Origin: a bacterium
GTDB lineage: Bacteria; UBP7; UBA6624
DNA: 64,000 nt
NCBI GenBank assembly: GCA_014384545.1
Contig: JACNFQ010000089.1
Span: 5,603 to 69,602 of the forward strand
Direction of reading: 5' to 3'
Part shown: positions 10,452 to 41,755 of the stretch, in pieces
How positions within the stretch are numbered: position 1 is the stretch's first letter
Layout: each line of letters begins with the position of its first letter
Made by a program: the position numbers and the translations under genes
The notes under the pieces: model-generated
Told to the model about the DNA's origin: nothing
Seen by the model: only the letters and a program-made list of their open reading frames with translations
The model's database searches: none

Positions 10452-10847
10452 TTAGGAAACTGCTGCGAGTGCTTTCTTGAATGCCGCAGCTGCTGTTGCC
10501 ATCTCTTCACAGATGCTTACCCCTTTTTCTCCCAAGAGAGGAAGGAGGGCTACTGGATCAATGACGCCAATACGAACCCTCCCTGAAGGGAGTTCCCGAG
10601 CCAATGCGCCACAGGGAAGGAATAGACCGATGTCTGGCACCGATGTCGTCGCCTTGTGAGCAAGGGCGGGGTTGCAGACCCCCAAGAGGCGGTATCCTTC
10701 AATCTCCTCCCCTATCTTCTCTTTGAGGAGCGTACGGACATCAATGTCCACTAGGGTACCAAACCCCTCCGCCTTCATCGCAACGATAAACCTATCCACG
10801 ACATCGTCCATTGGACCATCCACTTCCACAAAAAAACCGTATTCCAT
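10452..10847 (-). CDS. DUF302 family protein
   Basis: The MEYGF N-terminus, about 130 aa length and hydrophobic pattern are typical of DUF302. Confidence 0.55.
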   Translation of the reverse strand: MEYGFFVEVDGPMDDVVDRFIVAMKAEGFGTLVDIDVRTLLKEKIGEEIEGYRLLGVCNPALAHKATTSVPDIGLFLPCGALARELPSGRVRIGVIDPVALLPLLGEKGVSICEEMATAAAAFKKALAAVS

Positions 10848-10895
10848 AAGGACATCCTAGAACTCTTTGGGTGTTCTGAATATGATATCTTCTCA

Positions 10896-28792: not shown

Positions 28793-29359
28793 GTGTTCTG
28801 CCCCTTTGCCTCACAACGACCCCTCCCCTTTCACGATGAAAGAGGCTGTCCCCCCCGACTTGTTGTTCTCCATTACACAGCGACCACACGGGCTGACAAA
28901 GCGTTAGAAATCCTCAAGCGTAGGGAGCTCTCAGCCCACTTCTTGTTGGGTTTACAAGGTCATCTATTTCAGATGGTCCCCATCAGTCGGCGAGCCTGGC
29001 ATGCAGGTATCTCTTCTTATAGGGGCGTTTCGGGGGTAAATGCTTACTCGGTGGGTATTGAGTTGGTAAACCCTGGTCCCCTAAAGAGAAAGAATGGGGG
29101 GTGGTTTGCGGGTAATAGGCGCTGGATGGGGCGTGTGGTAAAGAAGGGGCATACTGTCTGGGCTGGGTGGTCCCATAAACAGATTTCCTCCCTCCTTTCT
29201 CTTCTCCAATGGCTCGGAGAGAAGGAGCCTGCACTTAGAGGAAAAGTCGTAGGGCACGAGACAATATCTCCCAAACGGAAGATCGATCCTGGCCCCGCCT
29301 TTCCTTGGGGTTTATTGGCTGATGCTGGGTGGCCCCCAGCAGATAACTGCTCCCGATAA
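28793..29359 (+). CDS. N-acetylmuramoyl-L-alanine amidase, AmpD/PGRP (amidase_2) family
   Basis: VVLHYTA...SAHFLL...RAWHAGIS...NAYSVGIELVN are the amidase_2 Zn-ligand/active-site blocks. Confidence 0.75.
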   Translation: MFCPFASQRPLPFHDERGCPPRLVVLHYTATTRADKALEILKRRELSAHFLLGLQGHLFQMVPISRRAWHAGISSYRGVSGVNAYSVGIELVNPGPLKRKNGGWFAGNRRWMGRVVKKGHTVWAGWSHKQISSLLSLLQWLGEKEPALRGKVVGHETISPKRKIDPGPAFPWGLLADAGWPPADNCSR

Positions 29360-32254
29360 CTAGAGAATCGTCGCGCGGGCTAAGACGGCCCCCATATGTG
29401 CCTCGCTCTCAATAACTCCCGGGAGTTTGATTCTTTGACCAGGTCCCGTAAGAACGATGAGACACGCTCCTTGCCCCATTGCTGAAGGAACCTGCCCCAT
29501 CACTTCGCTACATTCCTTGGAACCTAGCGCTCTCAAGTCCACGATGGCATTTGAAAACCGATGGGTTACTGATTCTCCTAATGTCTTCCTTTGGGCTTTC
29601 CTCAGTTTTGCCAAGTACGATCTTACACCTGTCTCCTCTATCTCAATCCCCGACAACCCCTTGAGGTGAAGAGAGAGCCTTGTCATGGCTACTTGTAGTT
29701 TTCTGTGGTCAACCAATTTCCCCAAGTGCCTAAACCACCCCCTCAAGAAATCATCCACTTCTAGGGACTCCTCTCCTTCTACAATCCGCTTGATTCTCCT
29801 TTGATCAGAGACCAACCAAACCCACGGGAATAGAAACTCCCTGCCCTCTTTTCCTTTGACCGCCAAACCATCATCCGTTACGGCATAATCTGATGTTTCA
29901 AGTGTCGTTAGGAGTGTCTCAAGAACAGAAACAGCTGTCTCGCCAGAACCCGTCGGGAGAATCAGTGTGGGGGCGTCCCAAGAGATAGGTCTTTGAATCA
30001 ACCATTGGGTAAAGACCTCTGTATCCATCCTTGTTGCATCTTCGCGAGAGTAGTATTTCTCGTCCAAGATACGCTGGAAAGTCTTCCAAGTAAACTCTTT
30101 CTTCATCTGCCAAGAAAGTCCTCCCAAAGCACCCCCCATTCCTCCTTCTCCTAAGAGTAATTCAAGCTCTTGAAGATCTTGGGTTACATCTTGGTTGATT
30201 GCAATTTCTGGTTGGAAAGAGCCAAAGGCTTTGCGGAACCCCGAGTAGATTTCGGCCTCAATAAGTCCTTCTTCTCCTTGGGCAAGAATCTCCATCAAGT
30301 CGCAGGGGTCAGCCTCCTCCCACCCCGTGGAGAGGTTCAAGTCAGCGGTCTCAATGGGGCTCCACGAAAGAACCCTTTCAACGACCATTCCCCCCTTTTT
30401 CTTCGTAGCCACGCAGGCGGCGACTGATTTCCCCGTCTCGTTGAAACAACCAATCACATCTCCTTCGTTGACCTCCATCCCCGGGGGCAGTTTGAGCTTG
30501 TCACCTTCGGCAAGAGATGAGGGGGCGGTCCAAAACCATGCCCTCCTCGGTGTCCCCATCACGGGCGCAGAATAGACCGAAAGGCGTCGTCCCAGAGAGG
30601 TCCGTCCCTCGTGGAATCGCCAGCGACCCTCTCGCGCTTCAAAAGCGAATGTACTGACAAGGGCACTTGCCAGAGCTCTTCGACTTACCCGGCGAATGAA
30701 AAGGAATCTATGGAGGAGGTCCTCAAACCCCAACCCTTCTGGATAGGCACCCAAGATCTGTCCCGCCAAGTCTGTTATCTCTTCTGCAGGAGATTCTTGG
30801 AGGCGTTGGAGTTGTTCAATCTCGGCATCCTCAAGTTGGGGAACACGAATGGGGGTCAGCACTTCCAACCTAAATCGAGATACACTACGGTACTCCAGCG
30901 TCAGAACGGAACCCAATGCCGCAGACGCATTTATCCACGCAGCCAATCCATAGAGGACGGAATGGGCAAAATCTGCCAAGACAACGAGGCTCTCCCCTCC
31001 GGGTAACTCCACTTCAAATTCCGCCCAGTTTCCTGGAGGAACCAAAACCGCATTGAGGGCGGTTGCTAACGGGGGGGGAAGAGGGGTGACTTCATCGTTT
31101 AGGAAATCATTTAGAGTGATGATGAGAAGGGGCTCCACCCCAGGAAATCCATCTTCAGCAAAATCTCCGTCTAGCCAATAGAGAACTTCACTTTGGAGGT
31201 TGAGTAATAGATCCATCGTTAGACCTGCGTCTCCTACCAATAAGCCCTCATCCATCCCACGCTTCTTGCCACCACCCACAATTCCCTTGTCCGTAGGAAG
31301 ACCAGATGCCTTTCGCCAATAGGGGTTGTCTTCAGAAAAGCGAACTCTTACCAGCTCTCCCGCTCCTTCCTTGACCGACAGAACATCATCCACATCCCCA
31401 AGGTACGAGGGGCTGGCTTGGTTTCTACTGGGACCAAGAAGGTAAGAAAGGAGATTCTCTCTAGATACACTCTTTGTCGGTTCTTGTGCTTCAAAGAACT
31501 GATCAATCTTCTCGCCTACTTCTTTTCGAAGGCGCTTCTCCCTCTTGCTGATTACAGTAGGTTCCTCTTTCTTTTTTGTCGTCTTCTTTCCCCACCTTCC
31601 ACCCTCCATAGCAAATCGCTTATCAAGTTCGGGCTGGAAGAACGCTTGGAGATCCGTTCGGAGATGAGCCTTTTTCTCTGCTCTCTCAATAATATCTTTC
31701 TTCTTGATCGCACCCGCTTCTTGGACAATCTCCAAAGCGGGAGAGTTGACCAGTCTCCACCCCACTCGTCCCCACAACCTACCTCGACCCTGGACTTTCT
31801 TCGCGGGGATTTCGGTTTCTGTAGCAACGCGAAAACGCTTGTCTGCCAATAACCAGAGTTTCGTTTCTCTTACTTTTTTCCCCATACTCTTAGCCACAAT
31901 TGACCGAATCTTGGACTCAATCAAGAATCCTTGTTTCTCCTCCAAAACCCTCAAGGCTAGCTGGTGCGTGGGGAGATTCTCGGGTAAAAGTTGCCATCCA
32001 CCTTTCACTTTTTCCGCAAAGTTACATTTCTCTAAGAATGGGACGGCTCTCTCTCCCACAAATTGAGCCGGTGAAACACCCGTTCGTTTAGCCAAAGGGG
32101 CAAGAACATCTTCAAGGTCCTTTTCTGGAACGGGGCTAAGAATAACCGCCCCCTCCCTATCCTGAAAATGGGCATCTGGGTCGGGCTGAGTCTGCTCTGC
32201 CAATCGACCAATAATCAACTCACTCATTGAGAGTGCTGCATCTTGTTTAGCCAT
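29360..32254 (-). CDS. large uncharacterised cytoplasmic protein of about 965 aa. The start is assigned to the internal Met preceded by AAGGAGG.
   Basis: A single long ORF with coding-like composition and no TM or signal peptide. The only motif-like element is a degenerate P-loop-like LILPTGSGET. An RBS AAGGAGG lies 5 nt upstream of the ATG at 32254. Confidence 0.6.
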   Translation of the reverse strand: MAKQDAALSMSELIIGRLAEQTQPDPDAHFQDREGAVILSPVPEKDLEDVLAPLAKRTGVSPAQFVGERAVPFLEKCNFAEKVKGGWQLLPENLPTHQLALRVLEEKQGFLIESKIRSIVAKSMGKKVRETKLWLLADKRFRVATETEIPAKKVQGRGRLWGRVGWRLVNSPALEIVQEAGAIKKKDIIERAEKKAHLRTDLQAFFQPELDKRFAMEGGRWGKKTTKKKEEPTVISKREKRLRKEVGEKIDQFFEAQEPTKSVSRENLLSYLLGPSRNQASPSYLGDVDDVLSVKEGAGELVRVRFSEDNPYWRKASGLPTDKGIVGGGKKRGMDEGLLVGDAGLTMDLLLNLQSEVLYWLDGDFAEDGFPGVEPLLIITLNDFLNDEVTPLPPPLATALNAVLVPPGNWAEFEVELPGGESLVVLADFAHSVLYGLAAWINASAALGSVLTLEYRSVSRFRLEVLTPIRVPQLEDAEIEQLQRLQESPAEEITDLAGQILGAYPEGLGFEDLLHRFLFIRRVSRRALASALVSTFAFEAREGRWRFHEGRTSLGRRLSVYSAPVMGTPRRAWFWTAPSSLAEGDKLKLPPGMEVNEGDVIGCFNETGKSVAACVATKKKGGMVVERVLSWSPIETADLNLSTGWEEADPCDLMEILAQGEEGLIEAEIYSGFRKAFGSFQPEIAINQDVTQDLQELELLLGEGGMGGALGGLSWQMKKEFTWKTFQRILDEKYYSREDATRMDTEVFTQWLIQRPISWDAPTLILPTGSGETAVSVLETLLTTLETSDYAVTDDGLAVKGKEGREFLFPWVWLVSDQRRIKRIVEGEESLEVDDFLRGWFRHLGKLVDHRKLQVAMTRLSLHLKGLSGIEIEETGVRSYLAKLRKAQRKTLGESVTHRFSNAIVDLRALGSKECSEVMGQVPSAMGQGACLIVLTGPGQRIKLPGVIESEAHMGAVLARATIL

Positions 32255-33239
32255 TCCAACCTCCTTGGAGGGCTTTTCTTGTAGCCCGTTGAACTCTCTG
32301 ACTTGCCTCAAGGGATGTGGTGGGAATATCCGTTCCCGCCGCGATGATCTTCATCCCTTTGAGCGCCTTGACCTTTGGGGGAAGCCCCGAAACATAGAGA
32401 ACTCTTACCCCGTGTTGAATCGCCCGCTCTGCCAACCACCATGGTCCCTTACCCATCAAGCTCTGTTTGTCAACGATCCCTTCTCCTGTCACAAGCCAAT
32501 CTGTGTCCTCCCATTCATTGTCCAGCCCTATCTCTCGGGCGACAAATGGCGCCCCTTTCCATATCTTTCCGCCCAATACCCCCAATCCGAGGGGGAGTCC
32601 TCCAGCGGCCCCCATTCCCTCGATATCAGAGTGTGGGATCTCTTCTTGCAGGGGCAATAATGCTCTTGCAAGGTTGCCCATTCCGGCTTCCAGCCGGCGG
32701 ACAGCGGACGGGTTAGCACCTTTTTGGGGTCCGTAAACCGTCGCTGCTCCCTTTTCCCCAAGTAAGGGGTTGGCAACATCGGCGATTATATCAAATTGAA
32801 TGCCCCTTAGGGGATTTCCCCGAATGGGTGGAATCACCCGCCCTACTCTTTCCATCATTCCCCCTGATGGCTTGAGGGGTTTTCCATGGGAAGAGAGGAA
32901 CTGATAACCAAGTGCGTGGAGCATCCCCATTCCCCCGTCCACCGTCGCTGTTCCACCAATACAGAGCCAAATACGCTTTACCCCAGCTTCACCAATCGCT
33001 TCCAACAGTTTGCCCACTCCCCCAGAATGGAGCTTGAGGGGGTTTCTTTCCTTGATAGGTACATGGGTCAACCCCACCACAGTCGCAGTCTCGGCAATCC
33101 CGAGAGTTCCCTTTTCCGCTTGGCACCACCTTGCAGATACGGGATGACCCAAGGGGGTTTCGCAGAGAGCCTGCCTCCAAACCGCCTCCTTTGACTGGGC
33201 AAGGGCATCCATCGTTCCCTCTCCACCATCACCGAACAA
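32247..33239 (-). CDS. glycerate kinase (GK-I family). The conserved N-terminus continues upstream to about 33365 with no ATG, GTG or TTG start.
   Basis: DGGEGT, IWLCIGGTATVDGGMGM and the GAAGG-type C-terminal motifs. Manual translation upstream of 33239 gives VPKFLVALDSFKGTLTSKEAGEAA, the canonical kinase N-terminus. Confidence 0.8.
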   Translation of the reverse strand: MFGDGGEGTMDALAQSKEAVWRQALCETPLGHPVSARWCQAEKGTLGIAETATVVGLTHVPIKERNPLKLHSGGVGKLLEAIGEAGVKRIWLCIGGTATVDGGMGMLHALGYQFLSSHGKPLKPSGGMMERVGRVIPPIRGNPLRGIQFDIIADVANPLLGEKGAATVYGPQKGANPSAVRRLEAGMGNLARALLPLQEEIPHSDIEGMGAAGGLPLGLGVLGGKIWKGAPFVAREIGLDNEWEDTDWLVTGEGIVDKQSLMGKGPWWLAERAIQHGVRVLYVSGLPPKVKALKGMKIIAAGTDIPTTSLEASQRVQRATRKALQGGWNG

Positions 33240-33369
33240 GAGGACTTTACCTTTGAAATGGGGGCAAACTGACTGAATCCCTTTCCAAGCTGCTTCTCCT
33301 GCCTCCTTGGAGGTAAGCGTACCCTTGAAACTATCAAGAGCAACAAGGAACTTGGGAACAGTCAGAAGT

Positions 33370-34278
33370 CTAGAAAATCCGGATTATTTCGCCCGTTCGG
33401 GCATCAACGGGGAGGTGTATTCTTCCTCCGGGCTCTACAACGACATTCACATCCCATGCAGGGACAAGCTCTCTATCTTCTCCCCGCTTCCACGCCTCTT
33501 CAAGGGCGGACCAAGTGTAAACAAGACGAATACCCGTTACCTTGACCGTGGCATAGGGTTTCTCACCCAAGAGCTGTGTGTAAACGAACGAAACGACTTC
33601 TTGGGCTGCCGTGACTGCGGGAATCACTTGGGCGGGCTCTCCAAGGATGGAGGGCTCTGCTCCCCAGGACCAGTACATCTCAAAGACGCGGGGGCCCACG
33701 ACCGTGATTTGGATGTGGTCGGGGTGGAGTTGAACTCCATCGTGGCGTCGTCCATATTCAAAGAAATAGCCCAAAGGTAGCCCCAGTGCGTCCCGGCTAG
33801 ATTGCACATCTCCACCCTTGATTTCACCAGAGCGAATCATCGTGGCATCTGGGGGAAGACCCCCCTCAATCCCCCCAAGAAAAAGATCTCTTATCTCTTC
33901 GGCTTCCTTTCGAGTTACAGGTCTAATCACAGCACTTGAGTGGTAGGGATAACGATAGGCAAATCCCCCATGTGGATAGATCTCAACTTCTTGTTCGTAG
34001 GGGTTTCTGTATCGTTGCGAGCCCTGATCAATAACCCTGCTAAAGCCCATATAGGGTACGCGTTCTCTGGTAGATCCTAAGAGAGACTCCAATAGGTTCT
34101 CTTCTTCCACTGTGGAATAGTTGATGCTGAGGTTAGAGAGTGTGGGACGGTCAACAGGTACATGGACCCCAGGAATGACATTCAGCATAATGAAAATGTC
34201 ATCCGTAGAGAGTTCGTTGGTGGCTGACCCCATCGATGCCCCCAGAAAGGCAAACAGTGTTAAGACGTTTCTCTTCAT
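33370..34278 (-). CDS. secreted protein with a C-terminal PepSY-like domain
   Basis: Signal peptide. The C-terminal PAWDVNVVVEPGGRIHLPVDARTGEII matches the PepSY consensus. Confidence 0.45.
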   Translation of the reverse strand: MKRNVLTLFAFLGASMGSATNELSTDDIFIMLNVIPGVHVPVDRPTLSNLSINYSTVEEENLLESLLGSTRERVPYMGFSRVIDQGSQRYRNPYEQEVEIYPHGGFAYRYPYHSSAVIRPVTRKEAEEIRDLFLGGIEGGLPPDATMIRSGEIKGGDVQSSRDALGLPLGYFFEYGRRHDGVQLHPDHIQITVVGPRVFEMYWSWGAEPSILGEPAQVIPAVTAAQEVVSFVYTQLLGEKPYATVKVTGIRLVYTWSALEEAWKRGEDRELVPAWDVNVVVEPGGRIHLPVDARTGEIIRIF

Positions 34279-34485: not shown

Positions 34486-34601
34486 CCCGTTGCCCTCCCT
34501 TCGGGGTGAGAGGATTGCGTGCTTCGCACAGGACTCCACCCCTGCGGTCGGTCCCGTGGACGCTACGCGCCCCCGCTGCCCTCCCTTCGGGGTGAGAGGA
34601 T
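34486..34601. repeat. direct repeat (34486-34516 and 34571-34601, period 85 bp) of the tRNA-Pro 3' end (last ~15 nt) plus 16 nt of 3' flank
   Basis: cccgYtgccctcccttcggggtgagaggatt is present twice. This resembles an att-like tRNA 3'-end duplication. Confidence 0.7.
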
Positions 34602-34660
34602 TCGAACCTCCGACCTCCGCATCCCGAATGCGGCGCTCTGACCAGGCTGAGCCACACCCC
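34586..34660 (-). tRNA. tRNA-Pro (anticodon CGG)
   Basis: Manual fold gives a 7-bp acceptor stem (CGGGGTG/CACCCCG), D-arm GCTC/GAGC, anticodon stem CCGCA/TGCGG with loop TTCGGGA, T-arm GGAGG-TTCGAAT-CCTCT, and discriminator A. No encoded CCA. Confidence 0.8.
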
Positions 34661-34870
34661 GTGGCAAGGGGTGATTCTAAAAGTAGCCGCATTCGGGGTG
34701 GAACATCCCGGACCACGGCGTAGCCGGGGTTAGCCACGCACTGCGAAGCAGGGTGTGGCAATCAGGCGCTCTGACCAGGCTCTGCCACACCCCGTGACAA
34801 GGGGTGATTCTAAAAGTAGCCGCATTCGGGGTGGAACATCCCGGACCACGGCGTAGCCGGGGTTAGCCAC
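34631..34870. repeat. two tandem copies (34631-34736 and 34765-34870) of a 106-bp unit. Each covers the 5' ~30 nt of tRNA-Pro plus about 76 bp of its upstream region.
   Basis: Direct sequence comparison shows 3-5 mismatches. The copy-2 tRNA fragment has CTC changed to CAG in the D-arm. The junction (34737-34764) can pair with 34784-34793 as a 10-bp hairpin. Confidence 0.75.
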
Positions 34871-35082: not shown

Positions 35083-36015
35083 TTGAGGTTAAGTACTCAA
35101 CCTCTACCACCACGGCCTCCCAAGAAGACTTCGTTGCCAGTGAAACGGTCGTTGTGGCGGGAGCACTTGTCCTCTACAAAGAAACCTAGTCCCCGCTTTG
35201 TTCAAGAGGGTCCTTCTTTTTGGGAGGGTTTACACCAAGAAGCAAAAGGTTACTTTTCTTCTTTTGGTCGCTCACAATCATTAGGTCAGAACTTCCTCGT
35301 TGACCCCTTTGCCCTCCACGCCATCTCTCTATTGATTGAGGCTCGTCCCTCTCCTTGGACTGTAGAGGTAGGGGCTGGACTGGGGTTTTTAACACGCGGT
35401 CTCTCCCACAGACCTCACCTCACCCTCTTTGAGCTGGATCTCTCTCTATTGTCACGCCTGTCGTCCCACTTTCCAAACGCTTCCCTTTTGGGTGACTTTA
35501 GGGATTGGGACGCATCAAGTGCCCCCCCAAACGGACTCCTCGTGGGAAATATTCCCTACTCTCTTTCGGGTTCCGTTCTCTCTCTGTTGGCTCGGTACCC
35601 ATCACGCTTTATCGGTAGCATTCTTACGCTTCAGCGAGAGGTCGCCCAGCGCGTGGCGGCACCGATACATACGAAGCGCCGAGGTCTTTTATCTGGTCCT
35701 CTCCAAGCGATCTACAACGTGGAAGTCGCCCGACGACTGCCCCCTGGTGTGTTTGCACCACCTCCTCGTGTTCACTCCGCTGTTTTGGTTCTAGATAGGA
35801 ACGAAATCTTTCCAGATGACAAATGGGCCCATAATCACCTTGCTCTGATGAAACTCGCTTTCTCACAGCGGCGGAAAAAGGTGGCAAACCTCTTGTCTCA
35901 TGTGCTTCCGGAAAAGTGCCTCAACGAGATTCCTGATGGAGCGCGTGCCGAAGATCTTCCCACATCCCTGTCCCTCCACCTCTCCTCTTTTTTTCAGCCC
36001 AAGAAAACGTCTTAG
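35083..36015 (+). CDS. ksgA: 16S rRNA (adenine1518/1519-N6)-dimethyltransferase. The N-terminal extent is uncertain.
   Basis: SLGQNFLVD, VEVGAGLGFLT and LVGNIPY motifs of KsgA/RsmA. Confidence 0.85.
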   Translation: MRLSTQPLPPRPPKKTSLPVKRSLWREHLSSTKKPSPRFVQEGPSFWEGLHQEAKGYFSSFGRSQSLGQNFLVDPFALHAISLLIEARPSPWTVEVGAGLGFLTRGLSHRPHLTLFELDLSLLSRLSSHFPNASLLGDFRDWDASSAPPNGLLVGNIPYSLSGSVLSLLARYPSRFIGSILTLQREVAQRVAAPIHTKRRGLLSGPLQAIYNVEVARRLPPGVFAPPPRVHSAVLVLDRNEIFPDDKWAHNHLALMKLAFSQRRKKVANLLSHVLPEKCLNEIPDGARAEDLPTSLSLHLSSFFQPKKTS

Positions 36016-36824
36016 TCGTTTAGCCCTAAAGCATCCTCTGAAAGGTCTCGCAAAGTCGCCAAATCAAAAACGGGGCCTCTGGTCCAAATGTTGACACCAG
36101 CCAAGAGGTCTTGGTTGCTCCACCCCAAACCCGTGGTCCAGTTCCTGTTGACGAGGAAATAGATATCCTTGTCGCGAAGTCTTGACTTTTCTAAGATGCC
36201 CATTAGAACCTTTTGGAAGGGCCTCGTTCCTCCAACGGCTGCTCCTACCATGCCCTGGAGAATCTTCTTCTTCATAATCTGATCTCTGAGAAAGGTCTCC
36301 CAAGGTTGATTCCCCCTGTCTTTACTCGCAATCAGGTGGACTTGGATGGGAGAACTTTCCTCTGAAGCTTTCTCCAGCGCTTTCGCCAAGACCGGGTTCT
36401 CCTTATCCGTTGTCAGATGAGTGATAACGACCTCTTTTCCCTGTGCCAATAGAGCATTTACCAGCCCGCGTTGGGCGGCTAGCCCCATATCCATGGAGAA
36501 GAGCCCTATCTTTCCCTCGGGCCATCCCTCTGTCGGAAGACCATTCCCATACGGTCCCCTTAGCCCTAAAGCCTGTCCCTCAGAAAGAAGGAATAGGCGA
36601 TGTGTAACGCTATCCACGTCTTGGAGAGAAACCCCAAAACAGTCTTTGCTAACCTCCGAAACGACCCCTGTCGTTTCCCCCCGCCCAAAAACTGATATCT
36701 TGAAACCTTGTCCGGGAGTGATTGGTGAAAACCCCTCTCTTGAAAAGAAGAGGGTCAGCACACCTCCCCCTTCCTCTTGTATCGACTCAATCGAATGGAT
36801 GTGAGGAATAAGGGGATCTGTCAT
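36012..36824 (-). CDS. AsrB/PyrK/sulfhydrogenase-gamma-like FAD/NAD(P) oxidoreductase-fold protein lacking the C-terminal [2Fe-2S] cysteines and with a degenerate NAD-binding motif
   Basis: FNR-like beta-barrel plus Rossmann pattern (RLFLLSEGQALGLRGPYG). No Cys cluster at the C-terminus. Its start overlaps the stop of the upstream gene. Confidence 0.5.
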   Translation of the reverse strand: MTDPLIPHIHSIESIQEEGGGVLTLFFSREGFSPITPGQGFKISVFGRGETTGVVSEVSKDCFGVSLQDVDSVTHRLFLLSEGQALGLRGPYGNGLPTEGWPEGKIGLFSMDMGLAAQRGLVNALLAQGKEVVITHLTTDKENPVLAKALEKASEESSPIQVHLIASKDRGNQPWETFLRDQIMKKKILQGMVGAAVGGTRPFQKVLMGILEKSRLRDKDIYFLVNRNWTTGLGWSNQDLLAGVNIWTRGPVFDLATLRDLSEDALGLND

Positions 36825-37840
36825 CCGAAATCTACACCTTGAATGATCTTCCTGACATCATGTTTTGTGGGCATCGCCGCCACACATCTATGTGCACCTG
36901 AACAACCCAGAAATCCATGTCTCTTGGGGAAGTAAAGGAACATCTCCAGAAGCCAGTCTCTTATCCTCTCCTTCATCCCGGGTCGATAGTCGTCCCCATC
37001 GGGTAGTCGAGAGTATCCTGGGGCATGAGGGTGCGTCCAAACTCTGTACCGTGTTCCTTGGTGACCTTTGGGGACATCTATAAATCGAAATTGGGTTCCC
37101 GAGTAGAAATACCGACTGATCGCTGCACTGGGAATCATCCCCAAGTAGACCTCGTCCCAGTAAGGTAATGCCAAAATCTCGGCATCCGAAAACTCTTCCC
37201 ACCGCTCCAGTTCTAGAGATTGATCGGTAGATCCCCGTACCCCCGCCTTTGCTTTTCGGGCATCTTCGCGATGGTCGGATTCTGCGGGATTGAACTGGTC
37301 AGTAATCAAGGCCATCCCCCGCTCGGTCAATACTTGGACATAGTAGGTTCTACCTAAATCGGTAAGGAGCATATCTACCCCCTCTTCAGGGAAAAGATCC
37401 ACCCCGACCGACTCAGCAAAGCAACACGGTGGCGGGTTGTGGTAACCCACACAGATTATGGCACTATTCTCTCTCCTAGCCTTGTACCGTTCATCGGTCA
37501 CATCCCCCATCCAATACGCATCCATAATCTCCAACCCTCTTACATCGGGTGGTCGCATGCCAAAAATAACCCTAGGAGTCGTGTCGGGCGGTTTGGGTGT
37601 AATCTCGACTTTGTCTGGAAGAATATCATAGGAGAAGATCTCTTCGCGAGGAGGAAAGAAAATCGCCTTAGGAGATTCCTTCGTATTCGTATACTCGGTA
37701 ATCACTTCTTCGCCCAGAGGGTTCCGGGTAAAGTGCAAGCTACCCTCCTTACCCGTGGGTGCCCAAACCTCTTGGCTCAATCTAAGATCGTCCAACCAGT
37801 AGCGAAGTTTCGCTTTCGCAAAGATGAAATCCGCAATCAC
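36821..37840 (-). CDS. AsrA/HydB(FlxB)-like protein with degenerate [4Fe-4S] motifs
   Basis: Alignable to AsrA blocks ([24 protein letters not shown] vs [32 protein letters not shown] vs FENCFCVSMG). The terminal CxxCxxCxxxCP is replaced by [12 protein letters not shown]. Confidence 0.5.
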   Translation of the reverse strand: [339 protein letters not shown]

Positions 37841-38727
37841 TGTTCTATCTTCCTTGAGAGTGTTAGAGGATTGTCTCCACGGTCTCCTGGACGGTAATCA
37901 AAAATGCGTCGGAAATGGCGTGACGACCAAGCTCGGATTGCTGAAACAGGTACTTTTCCTCTTTCTGTACCCAAATCAGAAAGGTCAAAACCAGACAGCC
38001 TTCCCAATCCCTGGTAGACCCAACATAGGTGCTGAAAAAAGAGATCTTCGGGACTGTAGTCACCTCGAACAAGCCCCGTCTCGGTCAGGTGGTCCCCCCC
38101 ACCATAAGTAGACGGGAAATGAGAAATAGTCTCATTTACTGGTGATGCTGAGCCAAACATCTCTAACCAATGTGCTCGTCTTTGTGGGTGGGTCATGTGG
38201 GAGAGTCTCTCTAGGTTTGTTCTTCCTAGGTCAGGTTTTTCCTTGTTCTCAAGATCAAACATCCACCGGGGTTCAACCAATAGGTCACATTCTTCGGGTT
38301 TTTCAAAAAGATCGTGCCAACTCCACTCCCAAAGAGCTTCTGGGCAATCAGGGAAGGTTATCTGATTCTCGTTACTCCTTGAAACCAAAACACGGTTGGG
38401 GTCTAGATACCCTGTAAACCGGACGCCAATAATGTGGAGGTTTTCTCTTTTAACGAGCCCATCCTTGACCAACTCCTTGATTGAACGCACCACGGCAGGG
38501 GTAGCAACAATTCCTACTTTTCCCTGAATCCCAGGAAGGTATGTAGCTAGGTTTAAGGTGGAGAAACAGTTAAAGACGAGGGATTGAACATCGTCGGGGC
38601 GGAATGCAAAACAGGGAGCCGTCGTGCCCGGGTATGGACCCACTTGATACCCAATAACGACACTCACGTAGTCTCGTTTTAGGAGACGTCTTGCCTCCCT
38701 CTGAATACTGATTCTTAGTTCGTTCAT
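37837..38727 (-). CDS. FrhB-family-like (coenzyme F420 hydrogenase/dehydrogenase beta-like) protein with Cys substitutions
   Basis: KVGIVATPAVVRSIKEL..LHIIGVRFTG parallels FrhB KLGTVAIPCQTMGIRKM..LLVGIYCMENF. The conserved Cys positions are Ala/Val here. Confidence 0.4.
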   Translation of the reverse strand: MNELRISIQREARRLLKRDYVSVVIGYQVGPYPGTTAPCFAFRPDDVQSLVFNCFSTLNLATYLPGIQGKVGIVATPAVVRSIKELVKDGLVKRENLHIIGVRFTGYLDPNRVLVSRSNENQITFPDCPEALWEWSWHDLFEKPEECDLLVEPRWMFDLENKEKPDLGRTNLERLSHMTHPQRRAHWLEMFGSASPVNETISHFPSTYGGGDHLTETGLVRGDYSPEDLFFQHLCWVYQGLGRLSGFDLSDLGTERGKVPVSAIRAWSSRHFRRIFDYRPGDRGDNPLTLSRKIEQ

Positions 38728-41072
38728 TCGTTAAAACCTAACGGTCCTAGCGCCTGAATACCCTTGCTGAACTCCTGGAGGGTTTCTCGGAGTTCTCTAA
38801 TCTGATGAGGCCCCATAAACGCTACCTTTATTCTGTTGGGTTCGATACCTGCTCCATCCATTACGCCCTCTAAGGCACGAAATCGTCTCATAGCCAAGTA
38901 GTTATCTTGGTGGAACCTACCTTCACCGAGGGGTCCTGCTAAGATGAGAACCCCATCAGCACCTCCCAAGAGTGTCTTGAGAACGAGGAGGGGGTCTAGA
39001 TGTGCCGAGGATCGAACACGTAAGAATCGATACGATGAACTGTATCCTTGTCTCTCCCTCCCCAACATCTCCAGAAGTGGATACCCGCCAAACTGCGTAG
39101 CAAAACCTGTAATCCGAGGTTTCCAGATCGTTCCCAATCCATCACTCCAAAGTGACTCTATTTCTGCAAGAGCCTTACCCATCTCCCACCCCCTTAGCTC
39201 CACATTTCTGGTGGGGCTAGCAGGAACGGATGCCCCACTCTCTGTTCCCCCCTCTCCAGCAACCCGAATGCGTTGAGACAATGTGCCCTCATTTGTCACT
39301 TCAAATTGCTCTGGAGAAACACGAGCACAATCTCGGTCATATCGACTCTCTTCTCTCGACCTAAGAATCAGTTTGTGTGGACTCCCTTTTTTTTTTCCTA
39401 AAACCCCAAGTGCTTTGGCCGCTGCCGCTTCAGCAGAAATCACTGCAGTTCGGATATCCCCGGGAGACGTGCAGTCTCCCGCCACGAAGACACCATCATT
39501 GTTCGTTGCGCAAGGATCCAATGCAGGGTGGGTTTCCTTCAAAAACCCACTCTTGTCAACCCCAACCTGAACAAGTTCTGACAACATCGCTGTTTCATCG
39601 TGAGGTACAGCCTCCGTCACTAAAACCACACCATTCGCCCTAAGGCGACGTTCGCCACCCTGCAAAATATCATGAACGACCACAACGGAACCTCCCGCCT
39701 GTGGTGAAACCTGAGAAGAGGCACCTCGAATCAGTTCCACTCCATATTCTTCAACAGCGGTCCTAAGAAACTCCCTATACCCTCTTGTGTGAGCTCGAAG
39801 ATCTTTGTAAACGACCGTACATGAACAATCGGGGTGATTCTTCTTGACCATAATCGCTTGCTTTGCTGCAATCATGAGGGGTATCTCGGTCGCATAGGGT
39901 ACCCCCTTTTGGGGATCATCACTACCAACATCTGTTAGCCAAACAAGAGACTGAGGAGCCTTCCCCCCCAAGAGTATCTCACCTTGAGTTGGTCCACCCG
40001 AAGAGAGAATTCTTTCAAATCCTTCCGCCGAAAAACTCCCCTCCGCACTCGGGTTTAGGTGCTGTAACGAAGAAGGGTCAAATCTCTTTGATCCCACAGC
40101 AAGAATGATCGCTCCCACCCTTTCGTGTACAACCTTCTCTTTTTCGTTGGGGTCAATCGCTCCCTCTTCTAAAAGGGATGTTGCCCCAGAGAGGGCACCT
40201 TTGATGTGGTCGGGGTCTACCAGAGGGTCGTCTGGTACCGCACCGGGAAAGGGGAGATAGAGAGCCGCCCTCATGGAAAGCCCCTCTTGATAACTATCTG
40301 GGATATTCTTAGGCAACGCCTCCATCGCTTTTTCCAACCCCTCCAACTTGTTCTTGTCAACGAATCTTGGTTTCTTATGAATATCCACTTCGTAGTTGCC
40401 CGGAACTCCCGATATCGAGCCCACTTCACTATAAGCATAAACCTCAATGTTTTCACTTTGGTGGCATTCCAACATCAACTGTCGCGCCAACCCTTGGGCT
40501 TCATCCAGTCGTGGCCACAGTCGATCTAACTGAACCAATCTACCCCCCAAAGAGGGTGCCCTCTCAACTAAGACCACCCCATACCCCCCTTTGGCTAGGC
40601 GAAGTGCTGCTGTCATCCCAGCGACCCCACCACCCACCACCAAAACCTGCTGTTCCACCCGAATGTGCTCACTCTCTATAGGTTTGCCTTGCTGTGTTCT
40701 CTTTACAGCTGTGCGCAAGAGTTGGAACGCTTTTTCTGTCGCTTCATCCTTATCTTCATGGACGAAGGCAACCATCTCTTTTAGGTTAACGACTTCCACA
40801 AGGTGCGGGTTGATTCCTTTACTTTCTAGTGCCGCCTTGATCGTTGCCTCTCCCCTCTCTAACGACCCCCCACCCACAACGACATACGCAAGAGCTTCTT
40901 CTTGGGCAACACGCCCCATTTCCTCTAGCCCCGCTACCGTATTGATGTCGTCATGTAGGTGAACATGGTCCACTTCTTGGAGTTCGTCCTCTAGCCGGTG
41001 AGCAATCCCTTCTAAGTCCAAGACTTCAAGGTCTCCCCCTTCTCTACTAATAAACACACCTATTTTGCTCAT
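38724..41072 (-). CDS. HdrA-like FAD flavoprotein flanked by N- and C-terminal MvhD-like domains, all lacking Fe-S cysteine ligands
   Basis: FAD fold VLVVGGGVAGMTAALRLAKGG..GGRLVQLDRLWP and NIEVYAYSEV match HdrA. The HdrA CxxCxxCxxxCP block is replaced by KLEGLEKAMEALP and DCS(I/M)C is lost. In the C-terminal MvhD-like domain, RVRSSAHLDP replaces RVPCSGRVDP and AGPLGEGRF replaces GCHPGDCHY. Confidence 0.7.
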   Translation of the reverse strand: MSKIGVFISREGGDLEVLDLEGIAHRLEDELQEVDHVHLHDDINTVAGLEEMGRVAQEEALAYVVVGGGSLERGEATIKAALESKGINPHLVEVVNLKEMVAFVHEDKDEATEKAFQLLRTAVKRTQQGKPIESEHIRVEQQVLVVGGGVAGMTAALRLAKGGYGVVLVERAPSLGGRLVQLDRLWPRLDEAQGLARQLMLECHQSENIEVYAYSEVGSISGVPGNYEVDIHKKPRFVDKNKLEGLEKAMEALPKNIPDSYQEGLSMRAALYLPFPGAVPDDPLVDPDHIKGALSGATSLLEEGAIDPNEKEKVVHERVGAIILAVGSKRFDPSSLQHLNPSAEGSFSAEGFERILSSGGPTQGEILLGGKAPQSLVWLTDVGSDDPQKGVPYATEIPLMIAAKQAIMVKKNHPDCSCTVVYKDLRAHTRGYREFLRTAVEEYGVELIRGASSQVSPQAGGSVVVVHDILQGGERRLRANGVVLVTEAVPHDETAMLSELVQVGVDKSGFLKETHPALDPCATNNDGVFVAGDCTSPGDIRTAVISAEAAAAKALGVLGKKKGSPHKLILRSREESRYDRDCARVSPEQFEVTNEGTLSQRIRVAGEGGTESGASVPASPTRNVELRGWEMGKALAEIESLWSDGLGTIWKPRITGFATQFGGYPLLEMLGRERQGYSSSYRFLRVRSSAHLDPLLVLKTLLGGADGVLILAGPLGEGRFHQDNYLAMRRFRALEGVMDGAGIEPNRIKVAFMGPHQIRELRETLQEFSKGIQALGPLGFNE

Positions 41073-41755
41073 GCTGTTACCCCTCGGTGAATAGATTGAA
41101 CCACTTTGTAAGAAATCCCCAACAGAAGGAGGATTGGGCCCGCCAAGAGAACTTGGCTAACCACATCCGGTGGTGTCAGGAGTGCTGCCATAACAAATGT
41201 CAATACAATCAAGTGCCCCGCCTTCTGTTTAAAAAAGAGTGGCGTAAGTAAGCCGATTCTAGCCAATAGCCCACAAATGACGGGCAACTCAAACGCCAAA
41301 GCCGCCCCCCCGACAATGCCTTGGACAAAACCCAACCACGCTGAGAATGTCCAAACAGGCTCCAAACCATGCGATAATCCGAACCGAAAGAGAAATCCTG
41401 AGGAGACTGGAAGAAGAACAGACCACCCAAACCAAGAACCTAATACCAACATCAGAATTGCGGGCAAAAAGACCCATTTGAGTCCTGCCACCTCTTTCTC
41501 CTTTAGCCCTGGGCGAACAAAGAGGACGATTTCTCGGACCCAAACCGGAAGAGAAAGGAGGGCACCCCCCGTCAGGGCAAGTCTCACCACAGATAGGAAT
41601 GCTTCTTGGGGTGAGAGAATGTGTAAAGAGACCTCAAACTTCTCTATGGGTATCTTGAGGGCGTCCAGTAGCACCCCTGCTTTCCACCCCACAAGAAGGG
41701 TCGCAACGAGCCAAGCAAGGAGCGACCGAATTAGCCCACCCCTCAAATCCCCCAA
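41069..41755 (-). CDS. tatC: twin-arginine translocase subunit TatC
   Basis: Six-TM protein with the conserved TPPD motif (ALLTPPDVVSQ) and a TatC-like N-terminus. Its stop overlaps the HdrA-like start (ATGA). Confidence 0.8.
   Translation of the reverse strand: MGDLRGGLIRSLLAWLVATLLVGWKAGVLLDALKIPIEKFEVSLHILSPQEAFLSVVRLALTGGALLSLPVWVREIVLFVRPGLKEKEVAGLKWVFLPAILMLVLGSWFGWSVLLPVSSGFLFRFGLSHGLEPVWTFSAWLGFVQGIVGGAALAFELPVICGLLARIGLLTPLFFKQKAGHLIVLTFVMAALLTPPDVVSQVLLAGPILLLLGISYKVVQSIHRGVTA

Follow-up and report, generated by a model that had tools for sequence, protein, structure and literature searches.

A rare, undescribed family of large cytoplasmic proteins encoded beside glycerate kinase and predicted to end in a methyltransferase-fold domain

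Within a 64,000-nucleotide stretch of bacterial DNA (the window), the gene directly downstream of a glycerate kinase is a genuine gene encoding a large cytoplasmic protein, here called X, that is unrecognized by any curated family model. Sequence comparison indicates that X represents a very rare, lineage-restricted and undescribed family of proteins of ~950–980 amino acids, and modeling predicts that its C-terminus folds as a class-I SAM-methyltransferase domain. We tentatively favor the hypothesis, to which we assign somewhat less than an even chance, that X is a non-methylating, nucleic acid-associated regulator or adaptor that carries a pseudo-methyltransferase and is coupled to glycerate kinase.

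The gene, its family and its neighborhood

X lies in a single uninterrupted minus-strand open reading frame (29360..32311, or 983 codons counted from the first TTG), a length far beyond chance because, at ~4% stop codons per position, we estimate the expectation for such a frame at ~1e-17. Translation starts at the ATG at 32254..32252 and ends at the TAG at 29362..29360; the resulting N-terminus (MAKQD...) lines up with that of the homologs (MKQNK...). In agreement with the initial annotation, which described a very large reading frame of clean coding composition with a strong ribosome binding site, the product is 964 amino acids long and AAGGAGG lies 5 nt upstream of the ATG, within the 3' end of glxK (Table 1); GAGGTG is found at the equivalent position in homologous loci. 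The size given there, ~965 amino acids, was accurate, but the span, 29360–33370, covers both X and glxK. An identical 964-amino-acid product is recorded at NCBI (MBC8515449.1), and the same sequence is present in independent assemblies. The protein had been called cytoplasmic, which is borne out by the lack of any signal peptide or transmembrane segment (the maximum 19-residue Kyte–Doolittle mean, 1.69, falls within a predicted beta domain).

X itself has no significant match in Pfam, NCBIfam, PADLOC or PDB sequences (phmmer). A search of 1.84 billion cluster representatives returned 17 matches, all of those with a source name being a "hypothetical protein," so the suggestion that X is a candidate new family stands. 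Collinear homologs of ~950–980 amino acids with conserved ends are encoded in ~12 distinct lineages, all known from metagenome-assembled genomes of unclassified uncultured bacteria. For this reason X is not a fusion artifact, and the missed stops that the initial annotation had considered can be set aside. The homologs form two clades, A and B, between which identity in X is only 22–28%. Overall dN/dS is 0.04–0.08, with values of 0.01–0.19 for individual domains; no domain shows relaxed selection, and all are under strong purifying selection. No relative was found on viral contigs, no PADLOC model matched X, and its loci have housekeeping genes as neighbors and no defense-island context. X is probably neither a mobile nor a defense element.

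Table 1. Features of the X locus in the window (residue numbers refer to X)
Feature	Coordinates	Strand	Basis
AmpD-like N-acetylmuramoyl-L-alanine amidase	28793..29359	+	Pfam Amidase_2 1.5e-25; NCBIfam AmpD 3.9e-27, under its cut-off
X coding sequence, 964-aa protein	29360..32254	-	Reading frame list, start context, conserved N-terminus, collinear homologs
Helical lead-in and predicted class-I SAM-methyltransferase-fold (Rossmann) domain, residues 686-964	29363..30199	-	Cropped AF2 model
IVDLRAL, residues 904-910	29525..29545	-	End of strand beta4, motif IV position; invariant D and R columns
LILPTGSGET, residues 764-773	29936..29965	-	Strand beta1 and Gly-rich loop; position, family alignment
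Small all-beta barrel, residues 570-648	30311..30547	-	AF2 strands 572-648
Fifth winged helix, residues 476-547	30614..30829	-	AF2 model, conservation; conserved F-I-R-R-V-S-R-R helix at 519-526
Acidic helix-loop and beta-barrel module, residues 340-466	30857..31237	-	Invariant columns; Foldseek on full model
Array of four winged-helix-like domains, residues 44-315	31310..32125	-	AF2 secondary structure, pLDDT 75-90
HARE-HTH-like pair, residues 95-222	31589..31972	-	Carries invariant D211-x-R213-F214...W221
Stop/start overlap ATGGCTAA, 8 nt	32247..32254	-	X ATG overlaps last codons and TAA of glxK
glxK-like glycerate kinase	32247..33365	-	PF02595 1.2e-82; TIGR00045 253.6 bits
Shine-Dalgarno sequence of X, AAGGAGG	32260..32266	-	Sequence read
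302-aa predicted secreted protein, first gene of the string	33370..34278	-	Reading frame, N-terminal signal-like sequence

X had been placed 7 nt after the kinase stop, whereas the two genes in fact overlap by 8 nt (ATGGCTAA, 32254..32247), an arrangement that suggests translational coupling of X to glxK. Frame analysis shows that the conserved N-terminus of the kinase, KFLVALDSFKG, is not preceded by a canonical start codon, and its start is likely the CTG at 33365..33363. At homologous loci the junctions overlap or abut (ATGA in L004, L013 and L015; a 17-nt overlap in L005), and glxK is directly upstream of X at every locus with enough sequence, in ~12 distinct lineages and both clades, a linkage that could partly reflect shared ancestry inside one poorly sampled phylum. 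The proposed co-transcription with glycerate kinase is supported, and the linkage is conserved at every homologous locus examined. Upstream of glxK lies the gene for the 302-amino-acid protein (up302), which has no Pfam, NCBIfam or PADLOC match; tblastn places homologs upstream at loci L004–L008, L012–L018 and L022–L025, again in both clades. The remaining neighbors differ between the clades. Convergence on an AmpD-type amidase was correctly described (Amidase_2 1.5e-25), the two stops abutting with 0 nt between them, but this arrangement is kept in clade A only, with overlaps of 0–20 nt; in clade B an M23 peptidase and a bactofilin are encoded near X.

Domain architecture

The initial annotation found no recognizable domains and recommended remote-homology searches. 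The first statement is true of direct sequence searches only: Foldseek, hhalign and Pfam scans across the family recover winged-helix (including HARE-HTH) and class-I methyltransferase folds. In the full-length AF2 model (pLDDT 69.6), winged-helix proteins are matched with probability 0.9–0.99. Weak matches to Pfam HARE-HTH occur in 7 of the 12 family members, the best having E 1.4e-5. P0003 (25.8 bits) falls just short of the cut-off (25.9), and X itself is also under it; P0014, a shorter relative, scores 29.5 bits and exceeds it. The second and third winged helices are basic for the most part.

The module spanning residues 340–466 is the most constrained of the protein, with dN/dS of 0.01–0.03 in the two closest clade-A pairs and 0.065 in a more distant pair. 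It consists of an acidic helix-loop with the invariant residues Y359-W-L-D362-G-D364-F-x-E367...P371 (the YWLDGDFxE motif) followed by a beta-barrel, and has no PDB match at the sequence level. Foldseek on the full model returned the N-terminal domain of LlaJI.R1 (6c5d, probability 0.95/0.91) and the B3 domain of ARF2 (8oj1, probability 0.82), at E values of 0.09–0.5 and with the query range unreported; in our reading of the model, the order of strands and helices predicted for residues 376–466 fits a pseudobarrel. Tentatively, this barrel may have a B3-like, DNA-binding pseudobarrel fold. X is acidic overall (139 D+E vs 123 K+R) and this best-conserved module is strongly so in every member (pI 4.1–5.6), which speaks against a nucleic-acid role. 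The second, smaller barrel is the least conserved domain, and its dN/dS, 0.08–0.19, is the highest.

The C-terminal region was modeled separately (pLDDT 83.9, pTM 0.84), and the best 50 Foldseek PDB matches to this cropped model are all class-I methyltransferases. Amino-methyltransferases lead: the top matches are CamA (8cxw; E 6.8e-4, probability 1.0), RlmKL (3v8v), HsdM (2okc) and TrmN (3tma). At the sequence level there is no methyltransferase match, and no Pfam methyltransferase model is matched, even weakly, by members of the X family. Given that the top 50 PDB matches are only methyltransferases, LILPTGSGET is best read as the equivalent of methyltransferase motif I and not as a Walker A motif. 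The family consensus is h-h-x-P-x-G-x-G-[ED], with P767 and G769 invariant, G771 and E772 almost invariant, and no conserved Lys or Thr position; in P0004, G-D-A-D stands where the consensus has G-x-G-E. The string aligns to VLNPAAQAG in an unnamed 655-amino-acid family (see below), which in turn aligns to VLDPACGTGGF of the HsdM structure 3ufb and VQDPAAGTAGF of EcoKI HsdM. Motif I lacks the acidic residue (Asp/Glu) ahead of its proline, and acidic residues after strand beta2 are conserved. At the motif IV position, an invariant D906-x-R908 replaces the catalytic (D/N)PP(Y/F/W); here IVDLRAL aligns to ILGNLTF of the 655-amino-acid family and thereby to IVATNPPFG of EcoKI HsdM. Other invariant polar residues include Y735, S736, R742 and R851; together with D906 and R908 these are also compatible with a still-active enzyme of other chemistry. 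In three clade-A pairs with unsaturated dS, dN/dS of the domain is 0.03–0.06.

Proposed role and alternatives

X appears to be built of modules typical of restriction-modification and DNA-modification-reader proteins, in the order winged-helix array (some HARE-HTH, partly basic), YWLDGDFxE motif with perhaps a B3-like barrel, winged helix, beta-barrel and methyltransferase-like domain. The last would have descended from gamma-type N6-adenine (amino-) methyltransferases, and it retains features of a nucleotide/SAM pocket, namely the Gly-rich loop PxGxGE and the acidic end of beta2, and has lost the (D/N)PP(Y/F) catalytic tetrapeptide, in the place of which stands Asp-x-Arg. We infer that X may be a non-methylating regulator or adaptor associated with nucleic acid, most likely DNA, whose pseudo-methyltransferase domain would bind a ligand or a partner. 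Because synthesis of X would be in fixed coupling to that of glycerate kinase and of the secreted protein encoded upstream, X probably shares a physiological module with the kinase instead of belonging to a defense system.

Alternatively, X would be an active enzyme whose methyltransferase-fold domain catalyzes a non-canonical transfer, either methylation at some other atom or delivery of a group other than methyl, with the winged helices directing it to nucleic acid or protein. The strong constraint on the domain (omega 0.03–0.06 in the three clade-A pairs), its intact Gly-rich loop and acidic residues after beta2, the clustering of invariant Y735, S736, R742, P767, G769, D906 and R908 at the positions of motifs X, I and IV, and a fold that matches active amino-methyltransferases with probability 1.0 are all consistent with catalysis. 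However, the Pro-Pro and aromatic residues of motif IV, which all characterized methyltransferases of this group need for placing the flipped base or amino group, occur in no member of the family; the lack of an acidic residue ahead of the motif I proline, the G-D-A-D of P0004 and the absence of any match to Pfam methyltransferase models likewise argue against activity, which we regard as unlikely. It is decidedly unlikely that X binds the kinase or (phospho)glycerate instead of nucleic acid, as a regulatory or scaffolding subunit either of glycerate kinase or of a module related to the envelope, to which the secreted protein encoded upstream would also belong. Such a role would suit the stop/start overlap with glxK at every locus, which is typical of fixed-ratio subunits, the conserved up302-glxK-X string, the proximity of AmpD in clade A and of the M23 peptidase and bactofilin in clade B, and the acidity of X, whose invariant Arg could bind carboxylate or phosphate; all recognizable domains of X, however, are of nucleic acid-associated types. 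To our knowledge, no glycerate kinase requires a partner.

Domain types shared with restriction-modification enzymes and a lost catalytic motif are what would be expected if a restriction-modification or defense gene were decaying, but we find it very hard to credit either such decay or an artefactual fusion through missed stops. Omega of 0.04–0.08 without a relaxed domain, full-length collinear orthologs with conserved ends in ~12 lineages, identical sequence in independent assemblies, a constant place beside glxK across clades and the absence of PADLOC matches and of relatives on viral contigs all weigh against it. The initial annotation had offered a scaffold or a degenerate ATPase as examples and rightly noted LILPTGSGET, but its comparison with the helicase/ATPase motif does not hold. 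A degenerate P-loop ATPase or helicase with the Walker A Lys replaced by Glu has in its favor the single local resemblance of PTGSGET, in the window protein, to PTGSGKT; homologs read AGHGE, SGEGE, AGDAD, LGDGE and LGEGE, conserving neither K nor T, and the motif aligns to motif I of methyltransferases, the only fold among the 50 best structural matches. At the level that these tools reach, we reject this identity as highly improbable; 12 members also gave no helicase, AAA or P-loop family match at E<=10.

Relationship to known systems

One likeness to X is found in the 655-amino-acid family (P0010–P0013), which combines two winged helices with a degenerate N6-methyltransferase domain. The resemblance to X extends to both ends: the winged-helix pair at the N-terminus is recovered by phmmer (E 8e-9 to 1.7e-5), and the methyltransferase-like domain at the C-terminus, its motifs similarly degenerate (NPAAQAG, GNFTF), by hhalign (probability 95.2, E 2.6e-8, 240 columns). 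Unlike X, it lacks the middle section of DGD/barrel module, fifth winged helix and beta-barrel, and its genes adjoin not glycerate kinase but pantothenate genes, FapA and TatD. This family is nearer than X to canonical methyltransferases: its profile matches HsdM 3ufb (E 0.029) and M.TaqI (E 0.2), and it is collinear with EcoKI HsdM over motifs X, I, IV, beta5 and VIII (E 8e-4). The last 280 residues of X are predicted to adopt the class-I Rossmann fold of the gamma-type N6-adenine/amino-methyltransferases (HsdM, M.TaqI, CamA; N6_Mtase PF02384) and, where it can be traced through the 655-amino-acid relatives, to share their collinear order of elements, that is, helical lead-in (motif X), beta1 with Gly-rich loop, acidic beta2 end, motif IV after beta4 and helix-G-beta5. 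These enzymes carry NPPY or DPPY, whereas X has the invariant D-x-R and no Asp/Glu before the motif I proline. X also has no specificity or nuclease partner genes and resides in a housekeeping, glycerate kinase-linked context.

HARE-HTH domains (PF05066) occur at the N-termini of restriction enzymes, in the RNA polymerase delta subunit and in ASXL/HB1, and can bind proteins instead of DNA, as in the delta subunit. Two to three N-terminal winged helices match this domain in 7 of 12 members, and within the X family itself no score rises above the gathering cut-off; X differs in its array of four to five winged helices joined to a pseudo-methyltransferase, an architecture unrecognized by the four libraries searched. 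One proposal for HARE-HTH domains is that they read modified bases in DNA (PMC11037411). The likeness to B3-like pseudobarrels (LlaJI.R1 N-terminal domain, EcoRII-N and plant B3 factors) comes from Foldseek (probability 0.82–0.95 to 6c5d/8oj1, with non-significant E values), and the barrel of X is strongly acidic in every member, unlike DNA-contacting B3 domains. Finally, single-chain restriction-modification and BREX-type methyltransferases (type IIG, PglX) resemble X as large polypeptides with N-terminal domains of DNA-recognition type and a C-terminal gamma-type methyltransferase fold. X departs from them in having no PADLOC match, nuclease domain or defense island, in the loss of the catalytic motif, and in a chromosomal position that is constant across deep lineages.

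The X gene, its neighbours and the coupling to glycerate kinase

The product of the minus-strand gene X is 964 aa long and is identical to a protein in NCBI, MBC8515449.1, which is named "hypothetical protein [bacterium]". The initial annotation of this region is largely confirmed: the length of about 965 aa, the strong ribosome-binding site, the glycerate kinase gene (glxK) upstream and the AmpD-like amidase gene (ampD) downstream were all borne out. Its one positional error lies at the junction of glxK and X. Rather than beginning 7 nt after the glxK stop, X begins at an ATG that overlaps the glxK 3' end by 8 nt (ATGGCTAA), and the interval 29360-33370, treated as a single gene, holds two. 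The N-terminus of X, MAKQDAALSMSELIIG, aligns with that of its homologues, MKQNKVIDMGLIITE, and the homologues have GAGGTG where the window has its AAGGAGG. X carries neither a signal peptide nor a membrane segment. At the other end, the stop codons of X (29362..29360) and of the convergent amidase gene (29357..29359) adjoin with a spacer of 0, and in clade A, one of the two groups of X homologues, the 3' ends of these genes overlap by up to 20 nt (10846..10865 in locus L004; 8704..8712 in L012). Such stop-to-stop or overlapping ends leave no space for terminators between the convergent genes. The amidase gene was overlooked by the ENA gene caller in loci L001-L003.

In every locus with enough upstream sequence, glxK lies directly upstream of X with overlapping or abutting stop and start codons. 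These loci are the window, L004, L005-L018, L022, L023 and L025, from about 12 distinct lineages; in L011 the glycerate kinase gene is fragmented. Translation of X is chained to that of glycerate kinase throughout these lineages. In clade A the order is up302 (a gene for a putative secreted protein), glxK and X, followed by the convergent ampD and the permease/Usp gene. In clade B, up302 is followed by genes for an M23 peptidase, a bactofilin and a 111-aa protein, then by glxK and X, and then by genes for a large GAF protein, PlsY and GpsA. As the other neighbours vary between the clades, the glxK-X pair is the conserved unit, with up302 staying nearby. Of the two linkages on which neighbourhood conservation was to be judged, that with glxK thus held in all loci, whereas convergence with ampD did not extend beyond clade A. 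The glxK linkage persists across lineages with only about 25% identity in X, an unusual pairing, and literature searches confined to HARE-HTH and accessions found no precedent for it and no description of the X architecture. It also offers a testable handle on function, through a possible complex of X and the kinase and through potential binding of SAM, phosphoglycerate or DNA.

The start of glxK is itself unusual. In the window (33323..33383, minus strand) a canonical start codon is missing before the conserved (K/N)FL(V/I)ALDSFKG. In clade A (all seven loci, L004 and L012-L017) an in-frame ATT shares bases with the stop codon of the gene before glxK, as ATTAA or ATTAG, an arrangement that would imply an AUU start with termination-reinitiation coupling. 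This ATT is absent from the window, where the sole start candidate is a CTG (33365..33363) 4 nt past the up302 TAG; clade B glxK genes have ordinary ATG or TTG starts. Because of the non-canonical start, public gene calls lack the full N-terminus and give products of 330 aa in L001 and 370 aa in L004. A programmed frameshift between up302 and glxK is unlikely, given that up302 is predicted to be secreted and that the conserved clade-A ATT start overlaps the stop.

Other features of the neighbourhood are listed in the table. The up302 product has no match in Pfam, NCBIfam or PADLOC, and its gene is kept upstream of glxK-X in both clades, with the three intervening genes in clade B. The tRNA-Pro gene lies just upstream of the up302-glxK-X string. 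The permease-Usp fusion is common to the window and most clade-A loci, and in L004 (11413..13826) the permease (580 aa) and Usp (204 aa) are separate genes. The window organism and clade A (L004 1..4820) show synteny over the HdrA/FlpD-like cluster, a hint that the metabolism of this unclassified lineage may be anaerobic or electron-bifurcating.

Features of the window and predicted modules of X
Feature	Position	Strand	Remarks
HdrA/FlpD-like flavoprotein (782 aa), Fer4_22 protein, unannotated genes, then RsmA/KsgA	~36000..41100	minus	
tRNA-Pro (CGG)	34587..34661	minus	sole RNA gene detected in the 64-kb window
up302, predicted secreted, 302 aa	33370..34278	minus	N-terminus MKRNVLTLFAFLGASMGSA
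X ORF, uninterrupted	29360..32311	minus	983 codons counted from the first TTG
X start codon, ATG	32254..32252	minus	AAGGAGG at 32266..32260, 5 nt upstream
Amino-acid permease fused to two universal-stress-protein domains, 803 aa	26331..28742	minus	
Four winged-helix-like units	residues 44-315 of X		AlphaFold2 model
Winged-helix pair	residues 95-222 of X		invariant D211-x-R213-F214...W221
Most constrained module	residues 340-466 of X		invariant Y359-W-L-D-G-D-F-x-E367...P371, then beta-barrel
Fifth winged helix	residues 476-547 of X		conserved FIRRVSRR helix
Small beta-barrel	residues 570-648 of X		poorly conserved
C-terminal domain	residues 686-964 of X		holds LILPTGSGET

Members, distribution and selection of the X family

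X has no significant match in Pfam, NCBIfam, PADLOC or PDB sequences (phmmer), and its matches to Rif1_N (E 0.22), capsid and 3C protease are noise. A word-indexed search of 5.8 billion proteins returned X as the sole match and did so again with alignment A1, which holds the homologous proteins P0002-P0007; with P0003 as the lone query it found four relatives. An exhaustive phmmer search over 1.84 billion cluster representatives gave 17 matches to X. Since the word-indexed search missed known relatives, its negatives on divergent families do not amount to absence; it is insufficient for the X family, which an exhaustive search of representatives detects. Six of the 17 matches, P0002 to P0007, are long and collinear with X: P0002 reaches 34% identity over the full length (E 1e-183), and P0003-P0007 reach 26-28%. 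The matches beyond these cover parts of X only, and P0008, a 1554-aa Ig-repeat protein, is spurious. About 15 further copies came from GTDB species genomes, JGI metagenomes and an additional word search.

Every copy derives from a metagenome-assembled genome labelled "bacterium" or "uncultured bacterium", and the one named host species that we checked is placed in "unclassified Bacteria" in the NCBI taxonomy. Clade A comes from marine samples (Tara and the like) and shows 33-37% identity to the X of the window, and clade B shows 22-28%; no relatives were found on viral contigs. Within clade A, dN/dS of X is 0.04-0.08 overall and below 0.2 in each domain.

These data bear on whether X is a real gene. 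An open reading frame of this size could be several genes fused by missed stops, a possibility raised at the outset, but the collinear homologues with their shared N-terminus contradict this, and the low clade-A dN/dS argues against a decaying remnant of a restriction-modification (R-M) system. That X is a remnant or an artefact is accordingly most improbable, and the data support the suggestion that it represents a new family. Being tiny and restricted to uncultured bacteria that are unclassified, this family has limited general importance unless new chemistry emerges.

Domain architecture and the PTGSGET element

The full-length AlphaFold2 model of X, built from seven sequences, has a mean pLDDT of 69.6, with values of 75-90 over residues 40-660 and poor confidence in the C-terminus. 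Compared with PDB and BFVD, it gave nothing at E<=0.001, with winged-helix and B3-like hints at the level of domains only. Likewise, among PDB sequences there was no meaningful match to a profile built for the family as a whole, for the DGD/barrel module or for the C-terminus; the profile matches to portal protein and thymidine kinase (E>0.07) are noise. X probably contains winged helices. Foldseek matched these units to Fur, FOXO1, cullin WHB and MarR-type domains (probability 0.9-0.99), and 7 of 12 family members weakly match HARE-HTH (PF05066; gathering cut-off 25.9 bits), the best being P0003 (25.8 bits, E 1.4e-5); the X of the window has no Pfam match to this domain.

The most constrained module, residues 340-466, has a dN/dS of 0.01-0.03 in the two closest clade-A pairs, and every member is strongly acidic here (pI 4.1-5.6). 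In Foldseek the full-length model of pLDDT 69.6 matched the N-terminal B3-like domain of LlaJI.R1 at probability 0.95 and a B3 domain from a plant at 0.82, with E values of only 0.09-0.5, and the sequence profile of the module had no meaningful match among PDB sequences. We therefore describe the barrel tentatively as B3-like on the basis of the model and do not assume DNA binding. Two other proteins share only parts of X. P0014 (821 aa) matches residues 139-225, the second/third winged-helix region; it has HARE-HTH domains (29.5 bits, above the cut-off), lacks the DGD motif and has an apparent stretch resembling the barrel plus fifth winged helix. P0015 matches residues 417-547. The unit of barrel and winged helix thus looks like a mobile module.

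We consider it very probable that residues 686-964 adopt a methyltransferase fold. Modelled alone (nine sequences), this domain reached a pLDDT of 83.9 and a pTM of 0.84, and Foldseek placed nothing but class-I SAM-dependent methyltransferases among its best 50 PDB matches (49 of them at probability 0.87-1.0). At their head stood the amino-methyltransferase group, with the CamA adenine DNA methyltransferase (E 6.8e-4), RlmKL, type I HsdM (2okc), TrmN and RsmD-like proteins; the matches had modest TM-scores of 0.35-0.42 on the query and at most 0.63 on the target. At the sequence level the link runs through an unannotated family of 655-aa proteins (P0010-P0013; loci L019-L021), whose C-terminus aligns with that of X over 240 columns (hhalign probability 95.2, E 2.6e-8). 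The top PDB sequences for the profile of this family are HsdM 3ufb (E 0.029) and M.TaqI (E 0.2), and the family aligns collinearly to EcoKI HsdM across motifs X, I, IV, beta5 and VIII (E 8e-4). Direct comparison of the X C-terminus with EcoKI HsdM covered the beta5 region only and was not significant (E 0.11); the connection is thus transitive, and it agrees with the fold result. No N6_Mtase model in Pfam or NCBIfam matched X or any of the 12 members, and the one weak match to a methyltransferase model was in the 655-aa relative P0012 (E 0.087). The proteins of this family, about 655 aa long, pair two winged helices of HARE-HTH-like type with a gamma-type N6-methyltransferase domain that is degenerate (NPAAQAG at motif I, GNFTF at motif IV), and they neighbour pantothenate genes, FapA and TatD, with no adjacent glycerate kinase.

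The element LILPTGSGET (residues 764-773) had been likened to the helicase/ATPase motif I (Walker A) with its Lys replaced by Glu, which would suit a dead ATPase. That position is Glu or Asp in all members, the following Thr is not conserved, and no P-loop, helicase or AAA Pfam model matched any of the 12 members at E<=10. With neither a conserved Lys/Thr nor such a match, and with a fold search that returns methyltransferases, this tempting reading is unsupported and very improbable. LILPTGSGE instead aligns with VLNPAAQAG of the 655-aa family and thence with VLDPACGTGGF, so that it corresponds to strand beta1 and the Gly-rich loop of methyltransferase motif I. Functional N6-methyltransferases are expected to carry (D/E)PxxGxGxF, part of which the X family keeps as P-x-G-x-G-[ED] (TGSGE, AGHGE, SGEGE, LGDGE, AGDAD): the Pro and first Gly are invariant and the second Gly nearly so, the acidic residue before the Pro is absent, and Glu or Asp follows. 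At motif IV, IVDLRAL of X aligns with ILGNLTF of the 655-aa family and thence with IVATNPPFG, and the catalytic (D/N)PP(Y/F/W) is replaced by an invariant D906-[LFIG]-R908 in all members having a C-terminus. Acidic residues are retained at the end of beta2 (T-D-D, E-E-D). Thus, features of the nucleotide pocket are partly kept and the catalytic tetrapeptide is gone.

Possible function and relation to known systems

X combines winged helices with a gamma-type methyltransferase fold lacking NPPY, and it is under strong selection. Our leading but tentative proposal for X is a regulator or adaptor that associates with nucleic acid, does not methylate and shares a physiological unit with the kinase; its pseudo-methyltransferase domain may serve to bind a ligand or a partner. 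The acidity of X as a whole, and of its best-conserved module, is a caveat to a nucleic-acid role; HARE-HTH domains can also bind protein, an example being the delta subunit of RNA polymerase. An active enzyme with non-canonical chemistry would fit the invariant D-x-R and the further polar residues that never vary; we consider it unlikely with the catalytic tetrapeptide replaced, and a scaffold of the kinase or of an envelope module seems somewhat less likely again.

The coupling to glycerate kinase together with the invariant D-x-R leaves a small chance of new chemistry, namely that X and the co-translated enzyme of the glycerate kinase family form a new housekeeping modification or sensing machine. 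Here, a group derived from (phospho)glycerate would be bound or transferred by the methyltransferase-fold domain, or sensed by it together with SAM; the Asp-x-Arg in place of NPPY would suit carboxylate or phosphate binding, and the winged-helix array would steer the activity to DNA or RNA. Improbable as we judge it, such a machine would represent new chemistry for the amino-methyltransferase fold and would tie central carbon metabolism directly to nucleic-acid modification or regulation in an uncultured lineage.

Among known systems, the nearest are the gamma-type N6-adenine/amino-methyltransferases, which the X C-terminus resembles in fold and order of elements. At the structural level X belongs to the class-I methyltransferase fold, whereas the absence of motif IV and of any model match excludes it from the functional N6-methyltransferases. 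Next nearest are the HARE-HTH proteins of R-M systems, which have been proposed to be readers of modified bases (PMC11037411), and the resemblance to single-chain type IIG or PglX-like enzymes is looser. X is not a member of the known defence proteins: with no PADLOC matches, viral-contig relatives or BFVD fold matches, and with a genomic context of housekeeping genes that is no defence island, a phage or defence origin has no support. The architecture of five winged helices, acidic DGD/barrel, beta-barrel and pseudo-methyltransferase, with its obligate glycerate kinase partner, has no counterpart in Pfam, NCBIfam, PADLOC or PDB. X offers a clear example of R-M and "epigenetic reader" domains, here HARE-HTH-type winged helices and a gamma-type methyltransferase fold, that have been exapted to build a chromosomal gene which is conserved, coupled to a kinase and under strong selection although the canonical catalytic motif has been lost.
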